The position numbers and the translations under genes were made by a program. This document shows positions 6,385-59,492 of a DNA stretch of 59,492 bases, piece after piece. The stretch covers positions 1-59,492 of IMG/VR virus record IMGVR_UViG_3300044940_000188. One strand, 5' to 3'. The DNA is from a virus. The notes under the pieces are model-generated. The model saw only the letters and a program-made list of their open reading frames with translations. It was not told where the DNA came from and searched no databases. Numbering within the stretch: position 1 is the first letter of the stretch; the number at the start of each line of letters is the position of its first letter.

Positions 6385-9300
6385 TCAGGTTCGCTCCATA
6401 GGTTTGCGTGCGCACCTCACGTTCACGCTTGTTTCGCAAAGATTGAAGCAGACCAGTGATGCTTATCGGGGCGTCTGGGTACATTTTATTGTGTCGAACA
6501 GCTTCGCCAATGAGTCTACCGCGTTCGGACGGGTCGGCTTTCAGTATGCGTGTAACAATATCCTGTTTATGCTCGGCGGCAAGGCGCGACCGACTGATGA
6601 GGTATTCCCGCTTGTCGTAGAAACGAGAAACCGACGTCGGGGTAAGGCCAATGCTCTGAACAAACAGGTCAAACGGAGAAACGTCATCCGCTGGAACGAG
6701 TACGTCACCCCGAGTAGACGTGATGCCTTCGGTAGCAAAACGGCCAGCGCGCAGGAAATCGCGGACAATCTTTGGTACGACAAACTCCAAACCACGGAAG
6801 AACCCGCGCACGTCACCGTTGGCAGACGCTTCCATGACTTGCTGGAAGCCACGCCCCCACTGCACGCCGATACCGATCCACGGTCCGCCGAAAGACGTAA
6901 CCGCACTACCAAGGAACGAGTCGGCGTTCTCCGGCCGTAGGTCGGCCATGAAAATGGACCCCATCGAAAGCCGCTTCGACATGTCGACGCCCAGGGCTGC
7001 CGGTATACCCTTGGCAGCAGCTTCAGCCAACGCCGGCGAGCCAGTGATCGCTGCAAGGTTTTTCTGGAACCACCAGTCGAACGCCTGCCCGCTGACCGCC
7101 GACGCCGCATCGTACGGCTCGTCATCGTCGCCAAACAACGCAAGCACCAGACCGGCAGCCCACTTGATTGGCTGGAACATGGTGCCCGTTACGCCGGCAG
7201 CGAGGGTGTGGGTGGCAAGCATGTTTAGGAAGACGCGCTTGGCTTCCTTGTCACCTTTCGTCCACTTGTACAGGTTCATGCCCATCATGGCATACATGTG
7301 CTGAGGCCACTGCATGAACTGTGTCACAAGAGGAGCACCGGCACCGAGAGGCCCGTTCGTCTGGAACCACCGCGGCTTGTTGGCGCCACCGTAGTTGAAC
7401 TGCGTCGTAGAGACAGCGGTCTTGGCGTACATCGTGGCCTGTCGGTCAGCTTCAACCTCACCGACAGCCTCTACCACCTCGTTGTACTTGAGATCGTAGG
7501 CAGCGATGGCCACCAGCACGCGGTTGTTCACCTCGGTCAAGTGGGCCATGATGCGAGAGGCGTCGAGGATACGCTGGGTGGGAGAGAGGTCCTGCCCCTC
7601 AGCAATGTCGCGCAGCTCTGCGATCCACGACAGGTCGATGACGTTGTTCCGCCGCAGCTCAGTCAGCATGGCGATGTACTTCTCCCCCCTGCCGTCCGGC
7701 AGGCTGGAGTCATTCCGGATCTGGTCGATGATCTGGTCGATGACCGAGAACGCCTGCTCAGCCGCCACCTTGCCTGTCAACTTGCGTGCAGCTGCGATAC
7801 CGCCCTTTGAGTCAACTACTGCCTTGAGCAGCGGCGACTTGATGAGATTCTGTGCCATACCCAAGGCAGCGCTAGCGGACCGCCAGCCGTACCGGGCGGC
7901 CAACCACGGCAGCGTGATCAGCCATGGCTGGGTGGCGTTGGTCATCCAGTACGCAGGTGTGGTGAGAGAAATGAACTGCGCGAACTCCGTCCCACGCTTC
8001 ACGATGTTCACAATGTCTGGCAGCTCGGCCATCTGCTCGTCGCGCTGCCTCAGCTCGTTCACCACATCACCCCGTCGCACCGCCGAAATCTCGTCGGTAC
8101 CACGGGTCCGCTTGGCGAACTCGTCCATGTCTCGCAGGTGCCGACCAAGCTGCCAGCCGTACTGCAGCTGTGAGGTGTAGTACGCAGATTGCTTAGCGTA
8201 GTTGGCGAAGTTCCGATGCTGGATGTCGTAGTCCACGCCCAGCCGGTTCTTGCGACGGATCTCATGCTTGCGGAAGCTGGAGTCCGCCAGCGACCGTAGG
8301 TAGAAGTTCTTGATTGCCGCCTGCGCCGCCTTGTTACCTTCCAGATTACCGAGAATGGAGGCAAGAGCCGAGTTCGACTGAATCGCCGCGTCCTGCGTGA
8401 ACTGTGACCGGCGTTGCACGTCGGACACAGCGTCGGCGCCGTAAGTTTCAACCATCCGCTGGCGAATCTCCTCCGCCTCCGTCCGCGACTCAGCTGTACT
8501 GAATTCTTTCTCAGTGACCCGCACTTCGAATTTGTTGTCGACCTTGAACACACCGACATCCAGCGTTGGGTCATCGCCACGCTTTGTCGCGGCATACGCG
8601 AATGCCTCCTTGCTGTCGGTGAACGTCTTGCGCTCTACCTCGCGCGACGCATACACGACAAAGTCACCGTAGCGCATTAGGGGGAAGTAATCACCCTGCC
8701 GCATTTCCGGCAAGCGGGCAAGCTGGGCTATCGTCGCCTTCATATCAGGCGTAGCGATGTCACCGATCATCTCATTCAGCTTCTCCGGGGTAATCCCAGA
8801 GAGCTTCTTGAGCGTGAACGTATCTTCGAACGTCTCTAAGTCGAGCGGAGCGCCGGCGCCAGTGGCCAACACCGCTCGCAGAGCGTTCTGCAGAATCAGA
8901 GTAGATTCCTCGGCAAGCGCGTTGCGGTAGTACGCCTGCAGGTCATCGTACATCTGTCGATACTCTGACGGCATGGCGAGATACCGAGCGTTCAGCTCTG
9001 ACCAGCGCTGCTTCGCCGTCGGTGTAGTCAGATGGCTGTTTCGAGGGCTAGTTACCGCCTCGCCGGGCGACACGCGGTACAGGCTAGCCTCAGTTGCTAC
9101 ACGTGACAGCTCGATAGCCGCTGCAGGGTCCTTCTGTTGCAGCGTAGTCCACCGCTGCATGATTTTCTCGGCACGCTCCATCAAGCGAGAGTTCTCAGCA
9201 GCCCGCTTGAAGTACGCATCCATGTAGGCAGTCAGCGGGTTACCCTGCGGACCTTGGAACCCGTCGGCGTACAGGTCCCGAATTTGCTCCATGGTCATTG

Positions 9301-39575: not shown

Positions 39576-39751
39576 GCTGATCTCCTCAACACGTGCCGCA
39601 CAATCTCAGCAACATCCTTGCGATCGTACTTCACAAGTACCTGCAACGCCCCGCGCAAGTATGACTTTGCCCGGGCGTCACCCATCGCAGCCGCCCGGCA
39701 CTTGGCCTTAAGAACATCTCCGTCAGGAAGGCTGGCAAACGGGTCCTTCAT
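39572..39751 (-). CDS. 59-aa ORF inside the glycosyltransferase operon (below the ORF-track cutoff)
   Basis: ATG 39751 overlaps the upstream stop (ATGA) and its own stop overlaps the next start (GTGA). Translation: MKDPFASLPDGDVLKAKCRAAAMGDARAKSYLRGALQVLVKYDRKDVAEIVRHVLRRSA. Confidence 0.45.
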   Translation of the reverse strand: MKDPFASLPDGDVLKAKCRAAAMGDARAKSYLRGALQVLVKYDRKDVAEIVRHVLRRSA

Positions 39752-40515
39752 ATCCGCAATTTCCCGTCAAAGTACAGAACGTCGTAGTGCTTGCTGAGAA
39801 AATCACGCATCTCCTCCGCCGTGACGTCCTTCGGACGCCGCAGGACAACCCTAACCGCCGGACCATTGTCCATGGAAGCTAGCTTGAGCAGGAACCCGCC
39901 GGCAGAACCAAGATCAACAGCATGAACACCATCGGCCGCCAGACGCGCCGCTATGCACGTCGCAGCGGGACCACAGGACAACACGACGAGATTGGCACCC
40001 TGCACTTGCCTAACGAGCTTGTCAGCAACCTTGTAGGACTGATGCGACGGACAAACGACGTGGGTCACAGAAGCCGCAGTCATACTGATCACAGCGAGCA
40101 GGGAGTTGCCTTTTTCACACACGACGTGCACATCTTTACCATCCCACAGCTGCTGTACAAGGACCAAATACTCCTTGCACAAGATCCACGGCGAGCTGTC
40201 GGGCCGGCTCACGAATGCCGACCCATAAACCCGGCCCATGTCTACGTACTCCGCGAACGACGTCATGTGCCGCACCCACCCGTCCAGCTTTGGTCCGTCC
40301 TTGTGCATGGTCGGGATAGCTGGCAGAAGATTGGGCGGCGGGTGTTTCAGGATGTGCCGCAGCTCGGCTGCAAGCTCCTCGTTGGCCGGCTCACGCACCT
40401 GCGAGCTACCGCGCATGAGCTTGAGTTCACCATCGCCGTAGCGAGACAGCGACATACCACCCACCACCCTCTTCATGGTCTCGAACTCGTCGAGAACCTT
40501 TGGCCATGTCCTCAC
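39748..40515 (-). CDS. GT-D (DUF1792-like) glycosyltransferase
   Basis: Motifs SLSRYGDGELKL and LSCGPAATCIAARLAADGVHAVDLGSAG. GTG 40515 overlaps the GT2 stop (GTGA) and has GGGAGAGG upstream. Confidence 0.65.
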   Translation of the reverse strand: MRTWPKVLDEFETMKRVVGGMSLSRYGDGELKLMRGSSQVREPANEELAAELRHILKHPPPNLLPAIPTMHKDGPKLDGWVRHMTSFAEYVDMGRVYGSAFVSRPDSSPWILCKEYLVLVQQLWDGKDVHVVCEKGNSLLAVISMTAASVTHVVCPSHQSYKVADKLVRQVQGANLVVLSCGPAATCIAARLAADGVHAVDLGSAGGFLLKLASMDNGPAVRVVLRRPKDVTAEEMRDFLSKHYDVLYFDGKLRI

Positions 40516-41264
40516 AGCGGCACCCTCTCCCACGTGAAATTCAACGGTATCGCCTTCGGCAGCTTTTCTCGGTTTTTCCGTCGCCGAATCTCACTGTACC
40601 GACTCGTGTCCCGACTGAGCACGGTCTCAGACGCGTCAGGCACGGAGTGAGTAGTATGCACATGCAACGGCATGGAGGCGGGCAGAAGCCGCGGCTCAAC
40701 GATGGCCGTCAGGTCCCGAAGGAATGGCGTCCCGCCACCCAGCGACCCGGAGTAGTCCTCGTCGTAGCCACCAGCCCGCCAGTACAGCTCTCTGGTGATG
40801 AGGTATGAGTCCACGTGCGGGTGAATCTCCACGAACGTCGCAGCCGGGTCCGCAGCGTCCTTCTTGCGCGTGAAATCAGCCGCCCCAACCCGCCACCGGC
40901 AGAACCGGTACCACCGCTCCGAGTCAAGCTCAATGTTGATGGCAGCAGCCATGGTCTCGGGCGGCACCGTGTGGTCGACATCGACGTGCAAAAGCCACGG
41001 CGTCTTGGCTACGTAGGCCCCAAGGTTACGCGCCCCACCCCGGTTCCACGGAATGTCCTCCTTGATGCGGTACAGCTCCACCGGCAGGGCGCGGACCATG
41101 CACCGCAAGGCCTCCTCTGCCGTCATATCAGGGCTGCCGTCGTCAACCACGATGATGTGAAGCCGCTTGAGCACCGCCGGGTCGTACTGCTCCCACACGT
41201 CGACATGCTTCCTGAGCATCCAGAAGTTCCGGTAGTACGGGATGATGAGGGAGATGTCATTCAC
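40512..41264 (-). CDS. Family-2 glycosyltransferase
   Basis: Motifs SLIIPYYRN, HIIVVDDGSPD, HVDVDH and AGGYDEDY. Confidence 0.8.
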   Translation of the reverse strand: MNDISLIIPYYRNFWMLRKHVDVWEQYDPAVLKRLHIIVVDDGSPDMTAEEALRCMVRALPVELYRIKEDIPWNRGGARNLGAYVAKTPWLLHVDVDHTVPPETMAAAINIELDSERWYRFCRWRVGAADFTRKKDAADPAATFVEIHPHVDSYLITRELYWRAGGYDEDYSGSLGGGTPFLRDLTAIVEPRLLPASMPLHVHTTHSVPDASETVLSRDTSRYSEIRRRKNREKLPKAIPLNFTWERVPL

Positions 41265-41985
41265 GCCAGTAGTCCTTGATCCATGGGTACCGTTTCTGTG
41301 CCTGCCGGCACCACGGCTTGAGTGCCCCCGGGGTACTAACCACAGTAGTCCCCGGCGCTGGACCGTCAGGCGACAACCACTTGAGGTACGCCAGCCCGTC
41401 GGCCGCAGTGAACCCCGCCGTGGGTGGATACAACCGGTAAGACAACCACCCTTGGTCCGACCCGAAGCACCGTGCCTTCCGCGCCTCTGCCGGCGACTTC
41501 TCCGGGTCGAACTCGTCCCAGATGTAAGTCATTGTACCCGGCTTGTGAAAGTACAGCCCACCAGCCACCTTCCGCCAGACGAACCGCCGGTCCACCCACC
41601 CGACGAAGTTCTCGGCACGGGTGAGCAGATGGTCAATGTTGCCAGTGATGATGACGTCGACGTCGATGGCAAGGATGCGCGGTCCGAGCACATTGGCAGC
41701 CTCGGCAGAGAAGTTCCACAACCGACGGTAGCAGGAGGGGAACAGCTCCCCGTGAGGGCTGCGGGCATGACTGACATTTGTCGGGTCCATGACCACGCGT
41801 ATTTCGGGCCGCAGGCCCGTGGGGTCGTCGGTTACGCAGACCAGCTCCCACGGCAAAGTAATGTGCCGGGCCAGCATCGCATAGAGGATGTTGTAGTAGT
41901 CCGGCAGGAATGAGGTACCGCGCTCGTGTTTTGGATCGGTCCACTTCCAGACGACTATGCTGGTAATCTGCCCTGACTCGTGCAC
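41257..41985 (-). CDS. GT-A type (DxD) glycosyltransferase, paralog of 38871-39575
   Basis: SCYRRLWNF, IDVDVIITGNI, GSDQGWLSY and the C-terminal KPW...YPWIKDYW align with the paralog. The start is set to GTG 41985 because the alignment begins at ITSIVVW; the track start 42201 would overlap the methyltransferase by 247 nt. Confidence 0.65.
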   Translation of the reverse strand: MHESGQITSIVVWKWTDPKHERGTSFLPDYYNILYAMLARHITLPWELVCVTDDPTGLRPEIRVVMDPTNVSHARSPHGELFPSCYRRLWNFSAEAANVLGPRILAIDVDVIITGNIDHLLTRAENFVGWVDRRFVWRKVAGGLYFHKPGTMTYIWDEFDPEKSPAEARKARCFGSDQGWLSYRLYPPTAGFTAADGLAYLKWLSPDGPAPGTTVVSTPGALKPWCRQAQKRYPWIKDYWRE

Positions 41986-42596
41986 AGCTGGAGCCAGTGC
42001 AAGATCCTCTCCCGATGAGTCGCGCCAACCATCGCGGTACGACTTGTGAGCACGCGTGGGGGCGGGTACGGCGCCAACCGACGAAGAACCTCCTCCTGCC
42101 GATGTCGCAGCTCCCGAATCTTCCGCACGTCGAAGTCCACCATCACGTAGGTGACTTTTTCGAATTCGCCGCTGTCTAATAGGTCGTCGAGGATGTCGCA
42201 TTCCGCACCTTCGCAGTTCAGTTTCAGGAACACGGTGGCAGGAGAGACGAGATTCTCACGAAACCAAGTTGAAGCCTTGACGAAATTGCACAACACTGGC
42301 TCGTAACCACGGTCAGTCCAATTGGTCTTTTTCCACAGGCTAGCACCCTTGCTACCTGCGTCAATAAGCTCTGCCTGCGTGTCCCGATCCCACAGCCCGA
42401 AACGGTGAACGACTGTCGTGCGGGTATCAGCAATCTCCTGCAAGTGTGCCCAACAGAACGGCGCCGGCTCGAAACAGTGAATCTCGTCAAACCCCCACTC
42501 TTGGGCAACGGCGAGTGACTGCCCGATGTTGGCACCGACATCAAGGAACACTTGCGGAAGGTGCAAGTATTCAGTATGCTCCGCTCCGTTGGTCAT
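41955..42596 (-). CDS. FkbM-family SAM-dependent methyltransferase
   Basis: Motifs VFLDVGANIGQS and HCFEPAP. Confidence 0.8.
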   Translation of the reverse strand: MTNGAEHTEYLHLPQVFLDVGANIGQSLAVAQEWGFDEIHCFEPAPFCWAHLQEIADTRTTVVHRFGLWDRDTQAELIDAGSKGASLWKKTNWTDRGYEPVLCNFVKASTWFRENLVSPATVFLKLNCEGAECDILDDLLDSGEFEKVTYVMVDFDVRKIRELRHRQEEVLRRLAPYPPPRVLTSRTAMVGATHRERILHWLQLCTSQGRLPA

Positions 42597-43205: not shown

Positions 43206-43400
43206 TCAAGATCGGGATTTGGCACGGGCGGCTTCCTTCTTGGCAGCGGAAAGAACACGCTCGATGTACTGGCGCACGGCCGCGCGGACATGTTCGCTGA
43301 CAGTCAGGCCAGTCTTGTCTGACAGCCGATGAAGCTCGGCAATGTCATCGTCGGGGACAATCACATGGATGCGGGTTCCGTTCAGGGACGGGCGTGGCAT
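43206..43400 (-). CDS. Ribbon-helix-helix (Arc/CopG-like) DNA-binding protein, first gene of the minus block
   Basis: TRIHVIVPDDDIAELHRLSDKTGLTVSEHVRAAVRQYIERV shows a beta-alpha-alpha pattern. AAGGAGG lies 7 nt upstream of the ATG. Confidence 0.7.
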   Translation of the reverse strand: MPRPSLNGTRIHVIVPDDDIAELHRLSDKTGLTVSEHVRAAVRQYIERVLSAAKKEAARAKSRS

Positions 43401-43517: not shown

Positions 43518-43562
43518 CCCCACCCCCCACCCCCCTTGGCCCGGTACCCCCTACCCCCGCCC
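43518..43562 (-). other. Run of seven G-tracts on the minus strand (C-tracts on plus) in the divergent control region; G-quadruplex or i-motif potential
   Basis: Plus strand reads CCCC A CCCCCC A CCCCCC TTGG CCC GGTA CCCCC TA CCCCC G CCC. Confidence 0.5.
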
Positions 43563-43654
43563 ACTGACGCCCGACAGCCCGAGGCGTTCCTAAGTCACGG
43601 TATATGAAGGGCGCGCATGGTGCATGCCCGCAATCGCTGCACACGCGCAGCGAC

Positions 43655-43669
43655 TTACAAACCTTGTAA
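43655..43669. promoter_or_regulatory. Palindrome S1: TTACAAACCTTGTAA
   Basis: Exact inverted repeat. Ends 2 nt before the GGAG SD of gene 43683. Confidence 0.9.
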
Positions 43670-43682
43670 CTGGAGTACTGAC

Positions 43683-44225
43683 ATGACTAAGCAGACCAAC
43701 ACGATCACGAATCCTGCCGAACTGTCGCGTATCGCGAAAACGTTCGCGCGAGCCTACACGCTCAACGTGTCGGCGGCCGACATCCTGACGGAGTCGGCAA
43801 GCATGTTCGCGGCGCGTCTGAAGCGCGAGGAACGTGCCAGCACGAAGGAAGAAATCAACTTCATGGTCGCCGAAATCGTCGCACTCTGCGGCTTGCAGAA
43901 GCTACCGTCGCGGGCGGTGCGCGAGTCGGAAATCCGCAGCGTGTTCCGGAACGCGGCGGCTTTCACGGCCGTGATGCAGAAGATCGGCAACACGCGCATC
44001 GGCTACGCGCCGGCGATCCAGCTGGCGCGGAAGTGCGATAGCCTGCCGGTCGCCGACGTCGTGGCATGGTACAAGTCCGGTAAGCCGATCGCAGGAACCG
44101 CGACGCCGAAGGCGAAGCGCGCACGCGCCGTGAAGACGTTGACGCACCTGTGCGACGAAAAGTCGTTGCCGCGCGACTTCCGCGACGCGCTGGCGCGGCT
44201 CATGGCGAAGTACTCGCTGGCCTGA
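43683..44225 (+). CDS. First early gene, 180-aa hypothetical protein
   Basis: ATG 43683 has GGAG 7 nt upstream; the track start 43617 is rejected. Bracketed by palindromes S1 and S2. Confidence 0.65.
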   Translation: MTKQTNTITNPAELSRIAKTFARAYTLNVSAADILTESASMFAARLKREERASTKEEINFMVAEIVALCGLQKLPSRAVRESEIRSVFRNAAAFTAVMQKIGNTRIGYAPAIQLARKCDSLPVADVVAWYKSGKPIAGTATPKAKRARAVKTLTHLCDEKSLPRDFRDALARLMAKYSLA

Positions 44226-44226
44226 G

Positions 44227-44241
44227 TTACAAGGCTTGTAA
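44227..44241. promoter_or_regulatory. Palindrome S2: TTACAAGGCTTGTAA (17 bp including the G...C flanks)
   Basis: Exact inverted repeat starting 1 nt after the stop codon. Confidence 0.9.
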
Positions 44242-44256
44242 CTCACGTCCCTTCAC

Positions 44257-44285
44257 CCCCACGGCTTCACGGCCGTGGGGTTTTT
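44257..44285 (+). terminator. Intrinsic terminator
   Basis: Stem CCCCACGGC / GCCGTGGGG followed by TTTTT. Confidence 0.8.
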
Positions 44286-44310
44286 CGCTTCATGCTCTGG
44301 GAAAATCACG

Positions 44311-44547
44311 ATGACCCCGCACATTGACGGTCATGACTTGACGCCCACGGAACTGATGAACCTTGCGCTTTCATGGCTGGAAGTTTTCAACGAAACCTGC
44401 GACGAGCATGCGTGGCGCGTGGCCGCCAGCATCTACAACGATCTCGCCGAACGGCGACAGGAAGCCATTCGGCTGAACCTCGAAAGCTCCACCTACATCG
44501 GGATGGTAGCTGATGACTTGAGCCGCGAACTGATGTCGTGGACCTGA
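44311..44547 (+). CDS. Hypothetical 78-aa protein
   Basis: ATG 44311 lies downstream of the terminator. The SD is weak. Confidence 0.55.
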   Translation: MTPHIDGHDLTPTELMNLALSWLEVFNETCDEHAWRVAASIYNDLAERRQEAIRLNLESSTYIGMVADDLSRELMSWT

Positions 44548-44564
44548 GCCTACCTGACACACGT

Positions 44565-44579
44565 TTACAAGCCTTGTAA
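44565..44579. promoter_or_regulatory. Palindrome S3: TTACAAGCCTTGTAA, with flanks extending to an imperfect 29-bp palindrome
   Basis: Sequence cacacgtTTACAAGCCTTGTAAacatgtg. Confidence 0.9.
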
Positions 44580-44593
44580 ACATGTGCCTGCAA

Positions 44594-44623
44594 CCCCACG
44601 GCCTGACAGCCGTGGGGTTTTTT
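44594..44623 (+). terminator. Intrinsic terminator with the same stem as 44257-44285
   Basis: Stem CCCCACGGC / GCCGTGGGG followed by TTTTTT. Confidence 0.8.
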
Positions 44624-44780
44624 GTGTGCACATTTCGTAGGGACTCCGTTTATGCGCCCATTTTTCGCCGTATGCCGGGCTGGCGGGCTGGCGGGCCGGA
44701 GGGGGCGGAGGCAGTGAGGAGAGGCGCCGCCTCTGGCGGCGTTATCATCGGCGCAAATCATGAGCCGTGGGGCTGAAGTA

Positions 44781-45171
44781 TTTGTAGTGGTTTGCAGTCA
44801 GAGGCAGCGAGGGCGGATCACTACAAACAAACCCAGGCGGAGAGCGGTCTATAAATATATATAGTTATTATAGTATTTATAGTGATGTCTCCGCCGAGAA
44901 CCTACGTAAGGCTTTTCGGTTTCGTGGGTTTGAATTGATGGGGTGTGTGTAGAAGATTAGGGTCTTCTATTTCTAAAGCGCGCTATAAATACTATTATTC
45001 GTTTTTTCTTTAGAAACAATGACTTCTAACCCAGCTGCTGAACTGCGCTTCGAGGGTTTATAGCAGCGCGCTGCTTTTAACCCCCACAGCCCCACAAACT
45101 CTCCCTCTGCCACTTAACAACCCGATTATTTATAGTCATCGAAACAGCCCTACTATAATTACTATAAATAC
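44781..45171. repeat. AT-rich non-coding island with 5 exact CTATAAATA copies in both orientations, nested in short inverted repeats
   Basis: CTATAAATA at 44849-57 (+), 44874-82 (-), 44983-91 (+), 45127-35 (-) and 45162-70 (+). Inverted-repeat pairs: 44781-89/44819-27, 44836-43/44888-95, 44950-56/44963-69 and 44971-78/45008-15. A 14-bp palindrome lies at 45062-75. Confidence 0.85.
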
Positions 45172-45207
45172 CCAGCCTTTCTCAACAGGTGATTTCAGCA
45201 TCACTTG

Positions 45208-45222
45208 TTACAAAATTTGTAA
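45208..45222. promoter_or_regulatory. Palindrome S4: TTACAAAATTTGTAA
   Basis: Exact inverted repeat in the leader of the early operon. Confidence 0.9.
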
Positions 45223-45259
45223 ATTTCCGAGTCTCTAAACAAGTCTCGGAAATCTTTTT
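45223..45259 (+). terminator. Terminator or attenuator-like hairpin in the 5' leader of gene 45303
   Basis: Stem ATTTCCGAG / CTCGGAAAT, 13-nt loop, then CTTTTT. Confidence 0.55.
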
Positions 45260-45302
45260 CACAGTGCCTACTCCCTAAACAAACCATGAAGGAGAAATCA
45301 TC

Positions 45303-45521
45303 ATGAACCGTACCAACCTGATCGAAGTCATCGCTGGTGCCGCCGAAACGATTGCTGACACGGTGGGCCAGCACCTGTCCACCCTGCCACCCGACCACCT
45401 GTTCGCACTGGAGTCGGCGTACTACGACCTGACGGGAAACCCGCTCTTCAGTGAGGCGCAACGCCAGCAGCTGCTTGCCCGTGCCAACCGCCCCCCCGCC
45501 GCTGGCGTGGGTCGCTTCTGA
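45303..45521 (+). CDS. Hypothetical 72-aa early protein
   Basis: AAGGAG lies 8 nt upstream of the ATG. Confidence 0.6.
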   Translation: MNRTNLIEVIAGAAETIADTVGQHLSTLPPDHLFALESAYYDLTGNPLFSEAQRQQLLARANRPPAAGVGRF

Positions 45522-45536
45522 TCGTGGGGTATCAAC

Positions 45537-46121
45537 ATGTTCATCATCTATTTCCAGTTGGTCCCCCACCCCGCTGGTGAGCCGGGTGAAGTGCCGGAGC
45601 TGTTCACTGATCATCTGCTCTACCCGCTGGTCCGTCCGGTTGAGTTCGGCAAGGTCCGTGCCAACAGCCCCACAGCCCCCCGCCCGTGTCGTGCCAGTGA
45701 GCCGTCCTACTTGCAGAACGACGAGCTGAACCAGCTGAGGACAAAGATGATGGTTGACTACTCACTGCGGTCCGGGCGCTTCTACCCTAGCGACTTGACT
45801 GAACAGTACCCTGCCGGCGTGCGGGCGATACTGAGTACAGCGCCGTTCTATCTGCAGCACTCCGACATCTACGAGATCGGCCTGCTGCTTGGCTGGTTAC
45901 GGCCCACCAGTCTTGGGTACTACTGGGGCATTGGTCTTGGTAGCACGCTGGTTGACGTGTTCAGTCGGACTGATCCGCACATCGAATTCCAGTTCGAAAA
46001 CGAGGAAGACGTTCTGCGTTGTGCAGAGCTGTCAGTGAAAGGAGGTGAGCGCTACTACTTCGCCCTGCCTGAAAAACCGTCACATACCACGCTCCGTTAC
46101 GTGGCACTGTTCACGTACTGA
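45537..46121 (+). CDS. Hypothetical 194-aa early protein
   Basis: ORF with typical composition; weak SD. Confidence 0.6.
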   Translation: MFIIYFQLVPHPAGEPGEVPELFTDHLLYPLVRPVEFGKVRANSPTAPRPCRASEPSYLQNDELNQLRTKMMVDYSLRSGRFYPSDLTEQYPAGVRAILSTAPFYLQHSDIYEIGLLLGWLRPTSLGYYWGIGLGSTLVDVFSRTDPHIEFQFENEEDVLRCAELSVKGGERYYFALPEKPSHTTLRYVALFTY

Positions 46122-46150
46122 AACACACCTACACATGAGGAGACACAACC

Positions 46151-46552
46151 ATGAAAATCAACGACGCAGCAATCGGCTCTCGCTCCAGCTTCAGTCTCGT
46201 CTACGAGGACTTCGTGAACTCTGTTCTGTTCATGATCATCATCGCCGCCTGCTTGATCGCTGGGGTAGTCAACACTGACGCCGGCTGGACGGTGGCAGGG
46301 CTGGCGCTCTGGGTTGTCAGGCTGGACGATCAGATCACCCGTGCCAGACGGCGGCTGCTGGTGTACGGCGAGACGGTGTTCCTGTCTGAAGCACTGATGT
46401 ATGCGCTGAAGCTGGACCCCGACAATGGCAAGCAGTTCCTGCAGAAGCTGGTGGAGGAAGGGTACGTCCGTGAGGAGATACTGGCGGAGGTGCTTGAACG
46501 CACCGTCGAAGCCTTTGGCCTGAACAAGAAAAAGACCAACAACGAGGAGTAA
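46151..46552 (+). CDS. Early membrane protein (133 aa)
   Basis: GAGGAG SD. Hydrophobic segments VLFMIIIAACLIAGVV and WTVAGLALWVV. Confidence 0.65.
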   Translation: MKINDAAIGSRSSFSLVYEDFVNSVLFMIIIAACLIAGVVNTDAGWTVAGLALWVVRLDDQITRARRRLLVYGETVFLSEALMYALKLDPDNGKQFLQKLVEEGYVREEILAEVLERTVEAFGLNKKKTNNEE

Positions 46553-46557
46553 CAGCA

Positions 46558-46767
46558 ATGAAAAGCTGCAACACCTGCCGACACTACTACCGTCCGCTGT
46601 TTGCCCGTCTACTGAACACTGGACGGGTGGAGTGTCACCATCCGAAAGTCAACGAGCTTGCCAGCAACCATCTGTTTGCCGTGCACGGGCAGTTCGGCAT
46701 CGACTGCCTGGGAGCGCGGCGTCTTTATTGCCGTGACGGCAGCATGCATGAGGAGAAAAAACCATGA
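46558..46767 (+). CDS. Cys/His-rich 69-aa protein, possibly a zinc finger
   Basis: CNTC...CHH...C...C pattern. GAGGAG SD. Confidence 0.6.
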   Translation: MKSCNTCRHYYRPLFARLLNTGRVECHHPKVNELASNHLFAVHGQFGIDCLGARRLYCRDGSMHEEKKP

Positions 46768-46907
46768 AAAGGAAGGACAAGTGGATGCGCAGACGGGAGC
46801 GCCGGCGTGCCGAGAAGTGGCTGCGCCTGCAGCGGCAGGCTGCTGAGCGGCAGCGGCTGAGGGAGCAGTCCGGGTTGATCGTTGCCGCTGAGGAGACGTC
46901 GCGATGA
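46764..46907 (+). CDS. Arg-rich 47-aa ORF (below the track cutoff)
   Basis: ATGA overlaps at both ends and AGGAG lies 8 nt upstream. Translation: MKRKDKWMRRRERRRAEKWLRLQRQAAERQRLREQSGLIVAAEETSR. Confidence 0.45.
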   Translation: MKRKDKWMRRRERRRAEKWLRLQRQAAERQRLREQSGLIVAAEETSR

Positions 46908-47212
46908 GCAGTAGCTATCAACCTCTATCCGGACTCGTGACGGAGCCGGACGGTACGCAGGCCATGTATTTGTTGGGCACTGCCGTCCTGACGGTGTATC
47001 CGTCCGGGACTGTCCGCATCGACACTGATGACTGGCGTGGGCATGTAGTTAGTACCCGCATCAACTACGCCGCTGCCAAATTACGGTTGAACCTGCGGAT
47101 CTTCTTTTCCAAGAACGGTGATCTGCTGCTTGTCTACAAAAACAGAGAGATGAACCTCCGCAAGGCCAGCGTCGTGGTACTCCACGATGGTGCCGTGCTG
47201 GAGGTAGCGTGA
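46904..47212 (+). CDS. Hypothetical 102-aa protein
   Basis: GAGGAG SD and coupled start. Confidence 0.6.
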   Translation: MSSSYQPLSGLVTEPDGTQAMYLLGTAVLTVYPSGTVRIDTDDWRGHVVSTRINYAAAKLRLNLRIFFSKNGDLLLVYKNREMNLRKASVVVLHDGAVLEVA

Positions 47213-47222
47213 CGTGCCTACC

Positions 47223-47237
47223 TTACAAACCTTGTAA
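47223..47237. promoter_or_regulatory. Palindrome S5: TTACAAACCTTGTAA (17-mer identical to S1)
   Basis: Exact inverted repeat, 7 nt upstream of the AAGGAG SD of the ATPase gene. Confidence 0.9.
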
Positions 47238-47256
47238 CCAAACTAAGGAGACAGAC

Positions 47257-48321
47257 ATGAACATCAAGAATGCGAAAACCATGATTAAGGCCCTCTACAA
47301 ACGTCAGGTGGAGACCGGTGTGCGGTACTCGGTGATGCTCCAGTCTGGCCCTGGGCTGGGCAAGTCGGAGGGTGTGGCGCAGGCGGTGGCAGAGCTGTCG
47401 CAGGAGATGAAACAGCCATTCGGGCTGAAGACCTTCCTGCTGTCCACGGTTGAGTCGCCGGACCTGCGTGGGTTCGGCATTCCGGCCAAAGACACCGACG
47501 GCACGCCCATAATGACGTATACCCGTGCGCCGTGGGGGCTGCGTGCTGGTGACCCGCAGCACGGGATACTGTTCCTCGACGAGTTCAGGCAGGCGAGCCA
47601 CGACGTTCAGAAACCGGCTGCCGAGCTACTGCTCAACGGGCGTGTGGGCGAGACCGTGCTGCCCATCACCTACATGGTAGTCGCGGCGAGCAACCGGGAC
47701 ACCGACCGCTCAGGCGTGCAACGGGAGATGGCGTTCATTACCAATCGTCTGCTGACGGTTGACGTGCACGCTGACCTCGACGCGTGGGTGGAGTGGGCCG
47801 AGAAGTCGCGGGTGCACTGGATGGCAGTGGCGTTCGCCAAGGCCAACCCGAGCGACGTGTTTGCTGACCGGGTGCCCGACAAGCCGGGTCCGTTCTGCAC
47901 GCCGCGCACGCTGGTCAAGGTGGCCAACCTGATCGACGCTGGGCTGCCTCAGAACATGTTCGGTGAGGTTGCTGCTGGTCTCATCGGTGAGGGCACGGCG
48001 ACAAAACTGGTGGCGTTCATGCGGGTCATCGACGAGCTGCCCACGTTCGAGGAGATCGTCAAGGACCCAGAGAACTGCCGCCTGCCGCCAGTTTCTCGGC
48101 CCGACGCGCAGTACGCTGCCATGCAAATGGTGGCGCACCGGGTGACCCCGGCCACCTCTCGGGCAGTGTTCACCTACCTGCTCCGCCTGCCGCGTGAGTT
48201 CCAGTTGGCCGGCCTGCGGGCAGCCCTGCGTGTGGCACCACAGGTGTTGCACAACAAGGAGTTCGCCGACTGGATGCGGTCGAACAGCCAGCTGCTCGCT
48301 GCTGTCGCCGCTGCTTCGTAA
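47257..48321 (+). CDS. MoxR/CobS-like AAA+ ATPase
   Basis: Walker A SGPGLGKSEG, Walker B ILFLDEF and sensor-1 VVAASNRD. ATG 47257 has AAGGAG upstream; GTG 47209 would read through palindrome S5. Confidence 0.85.
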   Translation: MNIKNAKTMIKALYKRQVETGVRYSVMLQSGPGLGKSEGVAQAVAELSQEMKQPFGLKTFLLSTVESPDLRGFGIPAKDTDGTPIMTYTRAPWGLRAGDPQHGILFLDEFRQASHDVQKPAAELLLNGRVGETVLPITYMVVAASNRDTDRSGVQREMAFITNRLLTVDVHADLDAWVEWAEKSRVHWMAVAFAKANPSDVFADRVPDKPGPFCTPRTLVKVANLIDAGLPQNMFGEVAAGLIGEGTATKLVAFMRVIDELPTFEEIVKDPENCRLPPVSRPDAQYAAMQMVAHRVTPATSRAVFTYLLRLPREFQLAGLRAALRVAPQVLHNKEFADWMRSNSQLLAAVAAAS

Positions 48322-48350
48322 TCTACTAACATCTGTAAGGAGACATGACC

Positions 48351-49691
<1,341 letters not shown>

Positions 49692-49755
49692 TGACACGTG
49701 TAGACCTCACCAACGGTACCAATTACCTGACTATCGAAGTAACGAAGGAGTAGAC

Positions 49756-50976
49756 ATGAGTAGCCAGAGGTTTACAGAAATGAAGTCGGCCGTGCTGATG
49801 CACGTGCCGTTCTTCGCTGCGCTCTTGCTTGACCGGATGACGATGAAGGTTGGCAAGTTCCCCAACATCCCGACGGCCGGCACCGATGGCAAGACGGTCT
49901 GGTTCGACGAGGATTTTCTCAACAGCCTGACACTCAAGGAGGCGATGTTCGTGTGCTGCCATGAGGTAGCGCACGCCATGTGGATGCACATGGACCGGGC
50001 CAAGAAATACGAGAGGCTCGGCACTGTGAACGGCAGGCCTTTCAATGCCATGAAGTGGAACACTGCCGCTGACTACGTCATCAACTATCTGCTGGTGGAG
50101 GCTGGCATTGGCAAAATGCCTGCAGGCGGACTGTACGACGGCCGGTACACGTCGAGCATGTCGGTAGAGGAGGTGTACGCACAGCTGCCGGACCCGCCAC
50201 CGTCTGGAGGTGGTGGCGGTAGTACTGGTGACGGCGGTGACAATGGCGACGGTGACGGCAGTGACGGCGGTGGCGGCCGTGACGCCATGCCGGGGTTCGA
50301 CGTGCACGTACCTGCTCAGTCCGAGGTTTCCCAAGAAGAGTGGAAGCGCGCTGTCGCTAGCGCCGTGCAGGCTGCCAAGACCGCCGGCAAGCTGCCCGGC
50401 GCACTGGAGCGGTTCGCTGAGGCATTACTTAACCCGCAGGTCACGTGGCAGGAGGTGCTGCGCCGACGACTGACGGCGCTGGTGGGGCGCGACGCGCGCA
50501 CGTGGGCAAAGCTGCATCGGCGCCGGCTGGTGGCACAGGGGGTAGTTATGCCAGGTTACGCCGGTCATAGGGCCGGCACGGTGGTGGTTGTTGTGGACAC
50601 GTCCGGGTCTATCAGCAGTCAGGAGCTTACGGTGTTCCTGACAGAGGTACAGGCAATTCTCGACGACGTGCAGCCGCAGGAGACCGTCCTCGTTGCGTGC
50701 GACACCAAAGTGCAAGATGTGCACACGCTGTATCCAGGCGATAGCCTCACAGCCCTGCAGCTCAAGCTGGGTGGAGGCGGCGGCACGTCCTTCGTCCCGC
50801 CATTCGAGTGGGTGGCGGAGCAGAGTGTGTACCCCGACACGCTGGTGTACCTAACCGACATGCACGGTACGTTCCCTGCTGACCCGGGCTACCCGGTCAT
50901 CTGGTGTGCGACGAGTGACCGGGAAGGACCGTTCGGCGAGACGATTCGTCTTGAGGTTGGAGGTGGGCTGCTGTGA
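49756..50976 (+). CDS. VWA-domain protein with an N-terminal DUF2201-type metallopeptidase-like domain (CobT-like partner)
   Basis: HEVAHAMWMH, a Gly/Asp linker, and the MIDAS motif VVVVDTSGSIS. ATG 49756 has GAAGGAG upstream. Confidence 0.8.
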   Translation: MSSQRFTEMKSAVLMHVPFFAALLLDRMTMKVGKFPNIPTAGTDGKTVWFDEDFLNSLTLKEAMFVCCHEVAHAMWMHMDRAKKYERLGTVNGRPFNAMKWNTAADYVINYLLVEAGIGKMPAGGLYDGRYTSSMSVEEVYAQLPDPPPSGGGGGSTGDGGDNGDGDGSDGGGGRDAMPGFDVHVPAQSEVSQEEWKRAVASAVQAAKTAGKLPGALERFAEALLNPQVTWQEVLRRRLTALVGRDARTWAKLHRRRLVAQGVVMPGYAGHRAGTVVVVVDTSGSISSQELTVFLTEVQAILDDVQPQETVLVACDTKVQDVHTLYPGDSLTALQLKLGGGGGTSFVPPFEWVAEQSVYPDTLVYLTDMHGTFPADPGYPVIWCATSDREGPFGETIRLEVGGGLL

Positions 50977-51602
50977 GAAAGCGCACTAGGTCTAGCCCGT
51001 TCGAAGGCTATCAGGTGTGTTGGAACTGGATGCAGACCAGCCGCATGTCCGTACCGATACCACTTACAAACGCCCAAATTCAGAGCATGTTAGAACGACT
51101 GGCGGCAGTGTCTGTCTCCGGCACGTCAATAGAAGTGCACAACCGAAACATGGCTGTGCATTACTCGAACACGTCCGTGATCAAGCTGGAAGGTATGTCC
51201 ACCACTGCCGCATTGCATGCCGGTGGATTGAAGATCCCGTCGCCACGCGAGTTCTTCATTGTGCCGAAGAGTGCGTCAGAGTATGCCGTCCTGCAGGACT
51301 GGGTAACCAAAGCGTGCGAGTATGAAGACAGACTTCAGCACAACCTTGCCATCTTGCACACACAGCTGTCGAGTGAAGAAGGTGTTCATCCAATGCTGGC
51401 TGATTTACTGGAACCGTTTTGGAAGCTGCGTGTAAACAAGCACGATTCGACGCCCGGCATCCACGATCTTCTAAAAATGCTGACAGACGGACTGGCGCTT
51501 CAGACTGTCATCGGTATGGACGTGGTTGTGAGACCTGTGACTCCGGTAGATGGTGGTTGGAGTGCAGGCGATTCAACGGTTGTTATTTCGTGGGTGGAGT
51601 AG
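50973..51602 (+). CDS. Hypothetical 209-aa protein; lower GC than surrounding genes
   Basis: GTG overlaps the VWA stop (GTGA). The exact start is uncertain. Confidence 0.55.
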   Translation: MRKRTRSSPFEGYQVCWNWMQTSRMSVPIPLTNAQIQSMLERLAAVSVSGTSIEVHNRNMAVHYSNTSVIKLEGMSTTAALHAGGLKIPSPREFFIVPKSASEYAVLQDWVTKACEYEDRLQHNLAILHTQLSSEEGVHPMLADLLEPFWKLRVNKHDSTPGIHDLLKMLTDGLALQTVIGMDVVVRPVTPVDGGWSAGDSTVVISWVE

Positions 51603-51606
51603 AACA

Positions 51607-52455
51607 ATGACCAGACTGTCAACAAAACCAATGGCCTATAAGGTCAATCATTGCCTGCGAAAAGAAGCTGAGCGCTACATAGTAGCTACACGCCCGCTCG
51701 TACCATTCCCGCTTGACCCGGTGAAGCACCTTCTGATCCCTGCAATCGGCAAAGAACGGCTGGCATTTTTACTTGATATGTGCACGTCGTATGAAGATCG
51801 CAAGAACAGAAAGCAGCCGTGGTTCGCCGTTAACGGTCACGGGTTTGCGGCATGCTATCCGGACATAACTATTACCTTCGACCGGGACTCTTTGCGGCAT
51901 GTGGCTAGTACATACCCGCTACCGCTGGACCGCCAGTTCTTGAACGTCCGCTCAATGGTGCTGGACATGATTGACTCAGGCTGGAGTATTGCCATTGATG
52001 TCCGGCTACCAACCATGTTCGAAGGCCGTCTGTGTGATGTAGGTATCCACTCTTCCAACCTTCCACCTGAAATTGCAGAGGCGGTGGCGTTGTTTGTGGT
52101 GAGTCGGTCTATCGTCACGTGCAACATCTATACAGCTTTTCAGCTGGTAGAGATGATGTACTCCGATCGCAAGAACATACGTGTTCTGGCTAACATCTTT
52201 CCATCTTTGAGGAAGACGTTAAGCGAGTTGGTGGGATATGCTATCCCGGAGGAGAAAGTCAATTTGATGCGTTGTATTAAGAACAGTCGGCTGCGGAATT
52301 TAATTCCCGGTATCAACGCTGTTCTGGCCGTCAAACACCTGATCCCCAAAGTTGAAACAGACGACGCCACACAGATACCGTACCCAGACATCTACTACTC
52401 GATGTCGCCCAGTGCCAGATTACTTGATCTATGGCTGGCACGCCAGCCGGGTTAG
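51607..52455 (+). CDS. Hypothetical 282-aa protein; lower GC
   Basis: ATG 51607 has GGTGGAG upstream; the track start 51550 is rejected. Confidence 0.6.
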   Translation: MTRLSTKPMAYKVNHCLRKEAERYIVATRPLVPFPLDPVKHLLIPAIGKERLAFLLDMCTSYEDRKNRKQPWFAVNGHGFAACYPDITITFDRDSLRHVASTYPLPLDRQFLNVRSMVLDMIDSGWSIAIDVRLPTMFEGRLCDVGIHSSNLPPEIAEAVALFVVSRSIVTCNIYTAFQLVEMMYSDRKNIRVLANIFPSLRKTLSELVGYAIPEEKVNLMRCIKNSRLRNLIPGINAVLAVKHLIPKVETDDATQIPYPDIYYSMSPSARLLDLWLARQPG

Positions 52456-52461
52456 CCAAAC

Positions 52462-52476
52462 TTACAAGCCTTGTAA
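52462..52476. promoter_or_regulatory. Palindrome S7: TTACAAGCCTTGTAA
   Basis: Exact inverted repeat, 6 nt after the stop codon. Confidence 0.9.
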
Positions 52477-52481: not shown

Positions 52482-52516
52482 AGGCCCACGGTCCCCGCGG
52501 ACCGTGGGCCTTTTTT
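52482..52516 (+). terminator. Strong intrinsic terminator
   Basis: 13-bp stem AGGCCCACGGTCC / GGACCGTGGGCCT, 4-nt loop, then TTTTTT. Confidence 0.85.
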
Positions 52517-52533
52517 GTGCCTTTTTCTTGCGC

Positions 52534-52562
52534 TTGACACGCCCCGTCGGCCCCGCTACATT
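52534..52562 (+). promoter_or_regulatory. Sigma70-like promoter candidate upstream of the DNA polymerase gene
   Basis: TTGACA, a 17-nt spacer, then TACATT. Located immediately after the terminator. Confidence 0.5.
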
Positions 52563-58251: not shown

Positions 58252-59492
58252 GTGAGCAAGACTGTAGCCCGCAAGAATCTGGTCCCTACGGCTGAAGTGC
58301 CGGCCTACCTGCGCAACGTGATTGCGCGGACCAAGACCGAAGACTTCTCGGAGTTCACCGACGGTGTGACGTCTGGCTTTGGGATCATCAGCTACCGTGG
58401 AAAGGTGTGGCGTGTCCGCAAGGGCGGCGAGGAGCAGCAGTACCTTGACGAGAACGGCGACGCGATGCCGTCGATTGAAGTTGTGTTCATCAAGGCTAAC
58501 CGCCTGCCGTCTAAGCTGTACTACGGAGCGAAGTACGTCGAGGGCGACAACAGCCCGCCGAAGTGCTACTCCACCGACGGCGTGCGGCCAGACGTCGCTG
58601 TACTGGAACCGGTGTCCGAGTTGTGCGCCACCTGCCCGAACAACGTCTGGGGCAGCCGCATTACCGATGACGGCAAGAAGTCACGTGCTTGTCAGGACAG
58701 CCGTAGGACGGTTGTCGTCTTTTCTCACCATCTGGTTGACGCGACGCCCTACAGCCCGCCGGAAGTGTTCATGCTTCGGGTGCCGCCCGCGAGCTTGAAC
58801 CCGTTGAAAGAGTTTGTCGAGAAAATTCTCAAGCCGAAAGGTATTCCTCTGTACTCGGTCGTGGTCCGTGTCGGGTTCGACAAAGACGCGTCCTTCCCGA
58901 AGTTTACCTTCCGGGTGGTGCGGTTTGTTACCGAGGAAGAGTACGAGATCATCGAGCAGCTGCGCGCTTCTGATGAAGTGGCGCGGATCCTCACGCAGGA
59001 GGGGGCTGCCGTCGAGCAGGGCGCGGGGGGAATTACTGCAGGCAGCGAGGTAGCGTCTGGTGCACCGGCCGGGCGCCGGGCTGAAGCGACCCCTGCAGCT
59101 CCCCCCGCCTCTTCCAAGAAAGCCAAGCTGGTTCCGGTCGAGGAGGAAGTCGAGGAGGATGTCGAGGAGGATGTCGAAGAAGAGGAAAACGAGGACGACG
59201 CTTTCCCTCCACCGCCGGTGCGCGCTGCCGCCCGTGAAGCGGACGTAGAGAACGACGAAGAGGAGGCTCCACCGCCTCCTCCCAAGAAGAGGGCCAAGCC
59301 GACTCCGCCACCGGTTGTCGAGGAAGACGAAGACGACGAGGAGGAGGCTCCACCGCCTCCTCCCAAGAAGAGGGCCAAGCCGACTCCGCCACCGGTTGTC
59401 GAGGAAGACGAAGACGACGAGGAGGAGGCTCCACCGCCTCCTCCCAAGAAGAGGGCCAAGCCGACTCCGCCACCGGTTGTCGAGGAAGACGA
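58252..59492 (+). CDS. SSB-like protein with a Cys4 motif and a long acidic/Pro/Lys repeat tail. Runs off the window and finishes at 224 (445 aa in the closed circle)
   Basis: GTG 58252 has GGAG 7 nt upstream. The frame is open to the window end. Contains CYSTDG...CATCPNN...ACQD. Not in the ORF track because it has no in-window stop. Confidence 0.7.
   Translation, partial: MSKTVARKNLVPTAEVPAYLRNVIARTKTEDFSEFTDGVTSGFGIISYRGKVWRVRKGGEEQQYLDENGDAMPSIEVVFIKANRLPSKLYYGAKYVEGDNSPPKCYSTDGVRPDVAVLEPVSELCATCPNNVWGSRITDDGKKSRACQDSRRTVVVFSHHLVDATPYSPPEVFMLRVPPASLNPLKEFVEKILKPKGIPLYSVVVRVGFDKDASFPKFTFRVVRFVTEEEYEIIEQLRASDEVARILTQEGAAVEQGAGGITAGSEVASGAPAGRRAEATPAAPPASSKKAKLVPVEEEVEEDVEEDVEEEENEDDAFPPPPVRAAAREADVENDEEEAPPPPPKKRAKPTPPPVVEEDEDDEEEAPPPPPKKRAKPTPPPVVEEDEDDEEEAPPPPPKKRAKPTPPPVVEED
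59284..59492 (+). repeat. Perfect 81-bp coding tandem repeat: 2 full units (59284-59364, 59365-59445) and a 47-nt partial unit that continues at the window start
   Basis: Period 81 verified by position (59284, 59365, 59446). Confidence 0.9.

Follow-up and report, generated by a model that had tools for sequence, protein, structure and literature searches.

The early region of an uncultured phage genome, IMG/VR record IMGVR_UViG_3300044940_000188, carries seven copies of a 15-bp palindrome, TTACAANNNTTGTAA (TTACAA-N3-TTGTAA); the window analysed here is the whole of that record (positions 1 to 59,492; 59.5 kb). The motif, which recurs in variant forms across the clade, is best interpreted as a set of dispersed phage operators, in a new variant form, placed beside ordinary terminators. 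Specifically, we propose, tentatively and at a little under an even chance, that the palindromes are duplex-DNA operators of a phage-encoded symmetric DNA-binding protein that would exert roadblock or boundary control over the early transcription units. The copies, named S1 to S7, all have 0 mismatches and are confined to one 9-kb stretch (43655-52476); by our own arithmetic approximately 0.0035 exact copies would be expected. No degenerate extra copies occur in the window at up to 2 mismatches, a tolerance at which 0.66 copies are expected, and 0/100 shuffles reached seven. The seven palindromes listed in a first-pass annotation of this DNA are thus all exact and far above chance. Their arms are identical throughout and their centres read, in order from S1 to S7, ACC, GGC, GCC, AAT, ACC, GCC and GCC. 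Many near-identical short sites at such a frequency are what a set of dispersed operators would look like.

Palindromes and terminators at early unit boundaries

Late genes run leftward from 42.6 kb, and the rightward arm starts with S1, gene A, S2 with a terminator, gene B, S3 with a terminator, and a 0.6-kb non-coding block. It continues with S4, eight small genes, S5, a MoxR-type ATPase and an acidic protein with S6, and ends with a DUF2201/VWA protein, two ORFans, S7 with a terminator, a promoter and the DNA polymerase module (coordinates in Table 1). The palindrome appears to mark every boundary of the early transcription units and thereby offers a ready-made map of the early regulon. S6 is an intragenic copy, which corrects an earlier account: it lies within open reading frame (ORF) 48345-49691, where the hexanucleotide TGAGCC x12 at 48445-48520 encodes an (EP)n acidic linker, and is located 190 nt past this repeat, still within that low-complexity linker.

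The three best terminator-like sites in a scan of 40-59.5 kb (52482-52511 with T6, 44592-44619 with T4/6, and 44257-44280 with T5) start 5 nt after S7, 12 nt after S3 and 15 nt after S2, respectively. GC-rich stem-loops with T-runs on the coding strand, as in intrinsic terminators, are present at 44257-85, 44592-623 and 52482-517, and stand 3' of gene A, gene B and the last early gene. Folded as RNA, the S2, S3 and S7 cassettes reach approximately -32 kcal/mol (z = -4.3 to -5.9), and under random placement the probability that at least three of the seven palindromes have one of these terminators within 20 nt on their 3' side is about 5e-6. The first-pass annotation had counted four palindromes with a hairpin and T-run behind them. 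Those at S2, S3 and S7 are strong, but the one at S4 is weaker (-14.8 kcal/mol, z = -3.5, with a T:T mismatch and a 7-nt loop) and borderline as a terminator; in the related genomes L007 and L011 it shows uncompensated mismatches and a poorer T-run, that is, it is not maintained.

The S2 and S3 units have in common the 9-bp stem CCCCACGGC/GCCGTGGGG and can be aligned over approximately 60 nt with gene B (ORF 44311-44547) between them, in agreement with the duplicated palindrome and terminator unit described in that annotation. Since both copies are also present in L007, the duplication is old. The sequence CCCACGG/CCGTGGG is common to the S2, S3 and S7 terminators. The half-stem annotated as lone at 44764-72 is indeed present; a second one occurs at 47529 (intragenic), and two observed against 1.2 expected is chance level. 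Gene B, for which protein searches gave no family match, has no space for a promoter of its own and would therefore be expressible solely by read-through of the S2 terminator, for which leakage in the manner of plain attenuation can be sufficient. An Rfam assignment was rejected, as the sole match was sub-threshold, between the S7 terminator stem and a Burkholderia sRNA model, and reflects the terminator rather than a family.

Comparison with related genomes (designated L002 to L025) revealed that each carries its own palindrome. Among the closest (L007-L011, with gene A 70-75% identical), 12/12 arm bases are kept at orthologous sites while the flanks diverge and the centres change, including strand flips (S2, GGC to GCC; S4, AAT to GGT or GGC). 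S5 has one mismatch in L003 and L011, and the S3 arm of L007 has a change that is compatible with a G:U pair. More distant relatives (ATPase 53-60% identical) carry 5-9 copies each of their own variant, of the types TTACAC-N2/3/4-GTGTAA and TCACAC-N3/4-GTGTGA. A third type, TTACC-N5/6-GGTAA, is found in the clade of Rhizobium phages (L002/L012, which are RHph_TM3_14A, and L020-L025) with 20-26 copies per approximately 20 kb on both genome arms and a maximum of 26 copies in 21 kb; its 3' arm often doubles as Shine-Dalgarno site and stop codon (GGAGGTAACCATG). As far as searched, no description of the TTACC palindromes of isolated Rhizobium phages was found in the literature. All copies within a genome change in concert, which is the pattern expected of a trans-acting factor co-evolving with its sites; the relatives might accordingly be used as a natural series of orthogonal site-and-factor pairs.

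The placement of the sites is also similar across relatives, 0-17 nt past a stop codon and 0-20 nt before a Shine-Dalgarno sequence, which at some sites starts only 0-2 nt downstream. In every relative the gene A homologue is flanked by palindromes on both sides. At the end of the early region the conserved order is last early gene, palindrome, terminator, 'cgcgagc..TTGAC-17-TAGATT' promoter and DNA polymerase; the palindrome-terminator-promoter order of S7 is kept in L005, L006, L015 and L017. The putative middle promoter, 'c(g/a)cgagc..TTGAC/TTGCG-N17-TAGATT/TACATT', stands directly after the early-region terminator and before the DNA polymerase module in five divergent genomes. The opposite order, terminator-palindrome-gene, occurs in L004 at 2165, L015 at 3629, L016 at 2441 and L017 at 3874, and the pairing of palindrome and terminator is therefore frequent but not obligatory. 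In L004 at 13.6 kb and L015 at 3.6 kb we identified a terminator, a sigma70-like promoter, a palindrome at approximately +5 to +20 and a Shine-Dalgarno sequence in succession. A TATATGAG box is conserved 5' of gene A, with the palindrome downstream of it in the window, L004 and L015; in L006 and L014 the palindrome overlies the -35 position on the upstream side of the box. If TATATGAG is a -10 element, as its match to the consensus suggests, the gene A copies of L006 and L014 would not be transcribed from that promoter.

Proposed operators on duplex DNA and their alternatives

The analysis directly shows the sites with their statistics, conservation, symmetry and positions, and the shift of specificity across the clade. 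The bases flanking the dyad centre are complementary in 46/55 sites and, in genomes with a single central base (odd spacer), in 25/28 sites. This last pair cannot form in a hairpin, because a loop of 1 nt would remain, and dyad symmetry of this kind, independent of foldability, is a property of duplex sites. The core is weak as RNA, and the S1 and S5 hairpins are missing from the minimum-energy fold. In the TTACC clade the position beside the 5-bp arms reads CA 20 times and TG 9 times on the coding strand, without preference for G:U over A:C; this wobble test gave no signal of RNA pairing in the clade. From the invariant arms around a free centre, the symmetry, the weak RNA, the operator positions and the intragenic copies we infer that the palindromes are read as duplex DNA. 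The intragenic S6 is consistent with a DNA site, which tolerates a coding location.

Under the operator proposal, a dimeric or tetrameric phage protein would bind the 15-bp palindromes sequence-specifically and host RNA polymerase would transcribe the phage early units. The sites would serve at the leaders of two early units (S1, S4), at internal junctions (S2, S5, S6) and at unit ends (S3, S7), where the bound protein would block initiation, promoter escape or elongation by RNA polymerase, and early transcription would be shut down or partitioned as infection advances. What we infer in this scheme is that recognition takes place at the DNA level, which protein binds and in which direction it regulates. 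The GC-rich hairpins with T-runs would be ordinary intrinsic terminators of the same units, and palindrome and terminator would adjoin because both boundary elements are squeezed into spacers of 30-60 nt. S3 is followed by a promoter-like block and S7 by the conserved sigma70-like promoter; their terminators therefore appear to be real unit ends, and a read-through device would be counter-productive there. Among the functions offered by the first-pass annotation, protein roadblocks that insulate cassettes come closest to this reading, which we favour only provisionally.

Two candidate regulators were shortlisted as the binding protein, one of which represents a new protein family. This is the product of gene A, the conserved first early gene, and the site in its leader would allow autoregulation if the protein binds. 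Only 4 homologues of gene A were found among 5.8 billion and 1.8 billion proteins, tblastn against phage genomes gave no matches, and profile searches against PDB and Pfam gave low-complexity or insignificant matches (e.g. eL8, E ~0.2). The protein is basic though its N-terminus is not arginine-rich, and its structural model is of low confidence. The second candidate is a ribbon-helix-helix (RHH) protein of the CopG type, the only recognisable DNA-binding regulator of the genome. While the motifs shift clade-wide, the RHH contact residues stay constant and gene A is too divergent to be read for co-variation; for the RHH protein, co-variation as seen in the sequences leans against a role as binder. 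Nuclease or RNA-binding domains were not found among the early proteins scanned.

Several observations weigh against the operator proposal. The presumed DNA contacts of the RHH protein, the beta-strand R.HVI, are the same in phages with differing palindromes, and for gene A, which has no family, fold or PDB match, the AlphaFold model is poor, with a pLDDT of 64 and no Foldseek match. A rigid dimer would be intolerant of the half-site spacings of 14, 15 or 16 bp among TTACAC relatives and of the N5 and N6 spacers within single genomes of the TTACC clade. One copy in L015 forms the apex of a longer hairpin with a T-run behind it, and this, together with the G:U-compatible variants in L004 and L007, hints at a role in RNA. 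It is not obvious what a roadblock directly 5' of a terminator would add. The absence of an integrase from the ORFs scanned and of prophage relatives from the genomes of 185,579 species makes a classical immunity repressor unlikely, and the promoters referred to are assigned by consensus match. Two variants of DNA-level control were tried and rejected. In an activator model the distance from palindrome to downstream -35 is 42-66 bp and not fixed, and no -10-like element follows the sites; a sigma54 enhancer was considered because the ATPase has a sub-threshold Sigma54_activat match, but no GG-N10-GC promoter follows S7.

The same hints at RNA are accommodated by a junction element, a hairpin bound by a phage endoribonuclease or RNA-binding protein that processes or stabilises early RNA or gates its translation, comparable to the RNase III sites that separate the early genes of T7 or to Cas6-type stem recognition. 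The close spacing to Shine-Dalgarno sequences and stop codons, the TTACC arms that are themselves Shine-Dalgarno site and stop, the coexistence of N5 and N6, the L015 copy inside a longer hairpin and the G:U-compatible variants of L004 and L007 would all fit. We nevertheless consider this element unlikely, as the stems are too weak to fold alone and lack wobble bias, the dyad symmetry includes the centre, copies within genes would lead to cleavage or blockage of the mRNA that contains them, no nuclease or RNA-binding domain was found in the early proteins, and the sites before terminators are left unexplained. The function put forward by the first-pass annotation, lambdoid nut/boxB or put-type antitermination, in which the transcribed hairpin would recruit an N-like protein, possibly gene A, to host RNA polymerase for terminator read-through, is not supported and in our opinion distinctly unlikely. 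The lambda-like arrangement does stand in its layout, since the succession of site, gene, site, terminator and gene (S1, gene A, S2, terminator, gene B) parallels lambda pL-nutL-N-tL1 and cro-nutR-tR1 and gene B requires read-through; the sites are also phage-specific like N and boxB, gene A is basic and poorly ordered, and the palindrome-then-terminator order recurs in L005, L006, L015 and L017. Features that define nut sites at the sequence level, however, are missing. The centre is variable and the arms invariant, when the loop is the determinant in boxB; a perfect A-form stem of 6-7 bp gives little sequence read-out; the symmetry reaches positions that cannot pair; and the RNA hairpins are weak. 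No boxA (CGCTCTTTA-like) match at up to 1 mismatch is found near any site, and its genome-wide count is at chance. New promoters follow the S3 and S7 terminators, and in relatives the terminator can precede the palindrome or, in L006 and L014, the site lies upstream of the putative promoter box.

The DNA-level features would also fit if a duplex-bound protein were transferred to passing polymerase. As duplex loading sites, the palindromes would let a new, fast-evolving protein of the gene A family board host RNA polymerase and cause terminator resistance or forced termination, which would amount to a symmetric analogue of Q-type antitermination with many loading sites; we regard this as improbable. 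If true, it would account for the site before each strong early terminator and for the conservation of this order where the early and middle regions adjoin in five divergent phages. Its strictly antiterminating form, Q-like and loading at many sites, strikes us as very improbable. Four sites stand directly before terminators or a leader hairpin, the order promoter, S4, hairpin and operon resembles pR'-QBE-tR', and gene A is near Q proteins in size. On the other hand, no Q family is known to have sites that are palindromic or multiple, the S3 and S7 terminators resemble true unit ends, a promoter-proximal pause signal is absent and gene A is without homology. Repeat cassettes with no dedicated factor, that is, copied boundary modules promoting recombination or gene shuffling like the PeSL (promoter-early stem-loop) cassettes of T4-type phages, would explain why paralogous S2 and S3 units flank a small ORFan and why three terminators have a common stem core; yet arms that are invariant amid diverging flanks, copies that are switched in concert between relatives and the lack of a terminator at most copies make this the explanation that we expect least to hold. 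It is also very unlikely, in our estimate, that the palindromes are phage-specific promoters, as duplex or as N4-type extruded hairpin, from which an unrecognised phage polymerase or a redirected host polymerase that ignores host-type terminators would start the next gene. The geometry of a 6-bp stem and 3-nt loop is like that of N4 early promoters (PMC4496689) and of LUZ7, a 3413-aa virion protein has the size of the N4 virion RNA polymerase (vRNAP), most early genes are preceded by sites, clade-wide co-variation is as in T7-group promoters, and several relatives have terminator-palindrome-gene arrangements with no sigma70 space (L016 at 2441). Against this, no RNA polymerase was found in the near-complete genome, the giant protein belongs to the LPD39 polyvalent proteins and has an HExxH motif, and perfect symmetry with a free centre gives no direction of transcription. 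Moreover, the Shine-Dalgarno sequence follows some sites after 0-2 nt, sigma70-like promoters lie directly upstream of some, and S3 and S7 would fire directly into terminators.

Genome and further features

The window represents a near-complete genome of a lytic podophage that is distant kin of Rhizobium phage RHph_TM3_14A. The closest isolates are the Rhizobium phages RHph_TM3_14A and TM27A, with the same gene order and a portal identity of 49.5%, and isolated relatives at this distance (~50% portal identity) are solely Rhizobium phages; no DNA similarity of the window to known phages was found. An 81-bp (27-codon) tandem repeat at 59252-59492 runs into positions 1-~200 with at least 5 copies that are 99% identical, and codes for an acidic, proline-rich repeat (..EEEAPPPPPPKKRAKPTPPPVVEEDED..). 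As the window ends inside this repeat, and an IMG/VR contig 96% identical to the window has 58.6 kb, the window amounts to an essentially complete genome; its contig had probably been circularised, or else broken, at the repeat. GGAGGC-N6-GCCTCC palindromes at the window ends were ruled out as a regulatory array, since they belong to the same coding repeat. Pfam and PHROG scans of approximately 75 ORFs detected no integrase, helix-turn-helix protein, sigma factor or RNA polymerase, and no prophage relatives were found among one genome each of 185,579 bacterial and archaeal species.

Table 1. Positions of palindromes, terminators, genes and promoter-like elements in the window, and palindrome variants of related genomes.
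Feature	Position	Strand	Remarks
S1 palindrome	43655..43669		TTACAAaccTTGTAA; 13 nt upstream of gene A ATG (first rightward gene)
S2 palindrome	44227..44241		TTACAAggcTTGTAA; 1 nt past gene A stop codon; with flanks, 9-bp stem
S3 palindrome	44565..44579		TTACAAgccTTGTAA; 17 nt past gene B stop codon
S4 palindrome	45208..45222		TTACAAaatTTGTAA; early operon leader
S5 palindrome	47223..47237		10 nt past stop codon, 19 nt before MoxR-type ATPase ATG; no terminator
S6 palindrome	48709..48723		within ORF 48345-49691, linker following EPEP repeat
S7 palindrome	52462..52476		6 nt past stop codon of last early gene (51550-52455)
Intrinsic terminator after S2	44257..44285	+	CCCCACGGC ttcacg GCCGTGGGG TTTTT
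Intrinsic terminator after S3	44592..44623	+	9-bp stem as in S2 terminator, T-run
S4 hairpin	45222..45259	+	weak terminator-like hairpin and CTTTTT
Intrinsic terminator after S7	52482..52517	+	strong; 13-bp stem, T6; closes early region
Gene A	43683..44225	+	180-aa basic helical protein, conserved first early gene; candidate binder
Gene B	44311..44547	+	78-aa acidic protein, between paralogous cassettes
Ribbon-helix-helix (CopG) protein	43206..43400	-	second candidate binder; Pfam E = 4.6e-8
AT-rich non-coding block	44849..45170		five exact CTATAAATA boxes, 3 on +, 2 on -, in inverted pairs
Sigma70-like promoter	52534..52562	+	TTGACA-17-TACATT; putatively for DNA polymerase module
Putative middle promoter	window 52517-52562; L005 ~8440-8472; L006 ~15262-15300; L015 ~15550-15595; L017 ~15180-15215		
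L004 palindrome variant			TTACACCGGTGTAA
L005 palindrome variant			TGTTACACAGCTGTGTAACA
L006 palindrome variant			TCACACG-NN-CGTGTGA
L014 and L016 palindrome variant			TTACACA-N-TGTGTAA
L015 palindrome variant			TTACAC-N4-GTGTAA
L017 palindrome variant			TCACACA-N-TGTGTGA

The five CTATAAATA boxes of the AT-rich block, against 0.04 expected, occur nowhere else in the window and are conserved in L007 and L011; the last lies approximately 38 nt upstream of S4. With its -10-like TATAAAT, the block probably contains the principal early promoters, in tandem, and/or a second set of operators or the replication origin. Between the S3 terminator and this block, a G-rich 8-bp tandem repeat (CGGGCTGG x2.6) is found at 44676-44696 in the GC-rich stretch 44660-44720, and L007 has a similar 'ggggccgggggg' run. 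Just 5' of the first palindrome, a C-rich tract (ccccaccccccaccccccTTGGCCCGGTACCCCc) at 43520-43565 is conserved in several divergent relatives, with counterparts in L004 at ~1090-1130 and in L014 at ~2850-2885. Lying where the leftward arm meets the rightward one, it may correspond to a genome terminus, a packaging signal or a promoter element of unusual type.

The giant ORF 6335-16576 (minus strand) encodes a 3413-aa 'polyvalent' protein of virion size, with an LPD39 domain at approximately residues 2415-2571, a C-terminal third that resembles DarB and, near residue 2228, an HExxH motif. Its N-terminal 2400 residues have no detectable family, the protein has no PDB sequence match, and motifs of single-subunit RNA polymerases (TxxGR, motif B, HD pattern) were not found in it. 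Rhizobium phage TM3_14A has two ORFs of 2307 and 963 aa at the same position. The size of this ORF and the 3-nt loops had prompted us to consider an N4-like phage with hairpin promoters. This was rejected, since no RNA polymerase motifs were found, the DxDGD motif is absent from every frame of the genome, and N4 RNAPII, gp1 and gp2 have no homologues in it. Searches for a phage RNA polymerase found neither a T7-like motif nor a homologue of N4 RNAPII, and Pfam and PHROG gave no match.

Two further loci were noted on the minus strand. ORF 3568-4197 contains the N-terminal domain of a dATP/dGTP diphosphohydrolase (PF18909, E = 8e-24), a family linked to nucleotide-pool editing in modified-base phages. 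Genes for glycosyltransferases (GT-D, GT2) and an FkbM-type methyltransferase at 39748-42596, adjoining the RHH gene, resemble a moron-type cluster for cell-surface modification, which is unusual in a phage with no signs of lysogeny.

Comparison with known systems

The lambda nutL/nutR sites with N, and HK022 put, also place an element able to form a hairpin ahead of the first early gene and between gene and terminator, and the specificity of nut is phage-specific as well. In contrast, nut has a boxA and a conserved boxB pentaloop where the palindromes have no boxA and a variable 3-nt centre, and there are two nut sites as compared to seven palindromes, some of which are intragenic or, in relatives, upstream of a putative promoter. 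The PeSL cassettes of T4-type phages consist of a sigma70 promoter and stem-loop repeats, and recombinational shuffling has been proposed as their role. There, too, repeated modules flank small ORFans, as is seen for gene B between the S2 and S3 units, but PeSL are without a separate invariant palindrome. The conserved inverted repeats (CIRs) of Streptomyces phage phiC31 are 17-bp inverted repeats bound by the repressor, with many highly conserved copies in early intergenic regions near promoters and terminators. They differ in belonging to a temperate phage with a known repressor and a distinct class of phage promoters.

N4 early promoters are hairpins of 5-7 bp with 3-nt loops (PMC4496689). 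The palindromes, with 6 bp and 3 nt, are similar to these and to the hairpin promoters of LUZ7 in dimensions and in their clustering in the early region (PMC4496689, PMC9163698), and a giant virion protein of approximately 3400 aa is likewise encoded. However, we found neither vRNAP nor RNAPII, and there is no conserved start site; the central bases (C, G, C, A, C, C, C), which flip strand at orthologues, are not a conserved purine on either strand, unlike the centre of N4 loops. Judged by the defining features tested here at the sequence level, membership in the nut, put and N4-promoter families fails. The T1-like phages (T1, Stevie) contain 16-20 copies of a mostly intergenic 22-bp repeat of unexplained function together with many rho-independent terminators (PMC4319613), and are thus also lytic phages that combine numerous terminators with an intergenic repeat. 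Their repeats differ in being asymmetric and oriented with transcription, and no systematic pairing with terminators has been described for them.

At present, the palindrome is a regulatory motif that is well documented and belongs to a generally familiar type, not a new principle. Should the sites control termination rather than merely block polymerase, they would represent a new coupling of a DNA-bound factor to intrinsic terminators. The closest functional analogue appears to be the stoperator system of Cluster A mycobacteriophages (L5 gp71 type), in which the repressor halts elongation at sites scattered over the genome and the site motifs change along with it between relatives (PMC9283540, PMC6550527). 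In both cases many copies of one short, phage-specific site are spread over the transcription units, mostly in short intergenic gaps. Stoperators, however, are asymmetric 13-mers, bound by a monomer and oriented with transcription, and belong to temperate phages with an immunity repressor, whereas the sites described here are perfect palindromes in a phage that looks lytic; the palindromes are therefore not members of the stoperator family, but are comparable to it in how dispersed sites would act on transcription.

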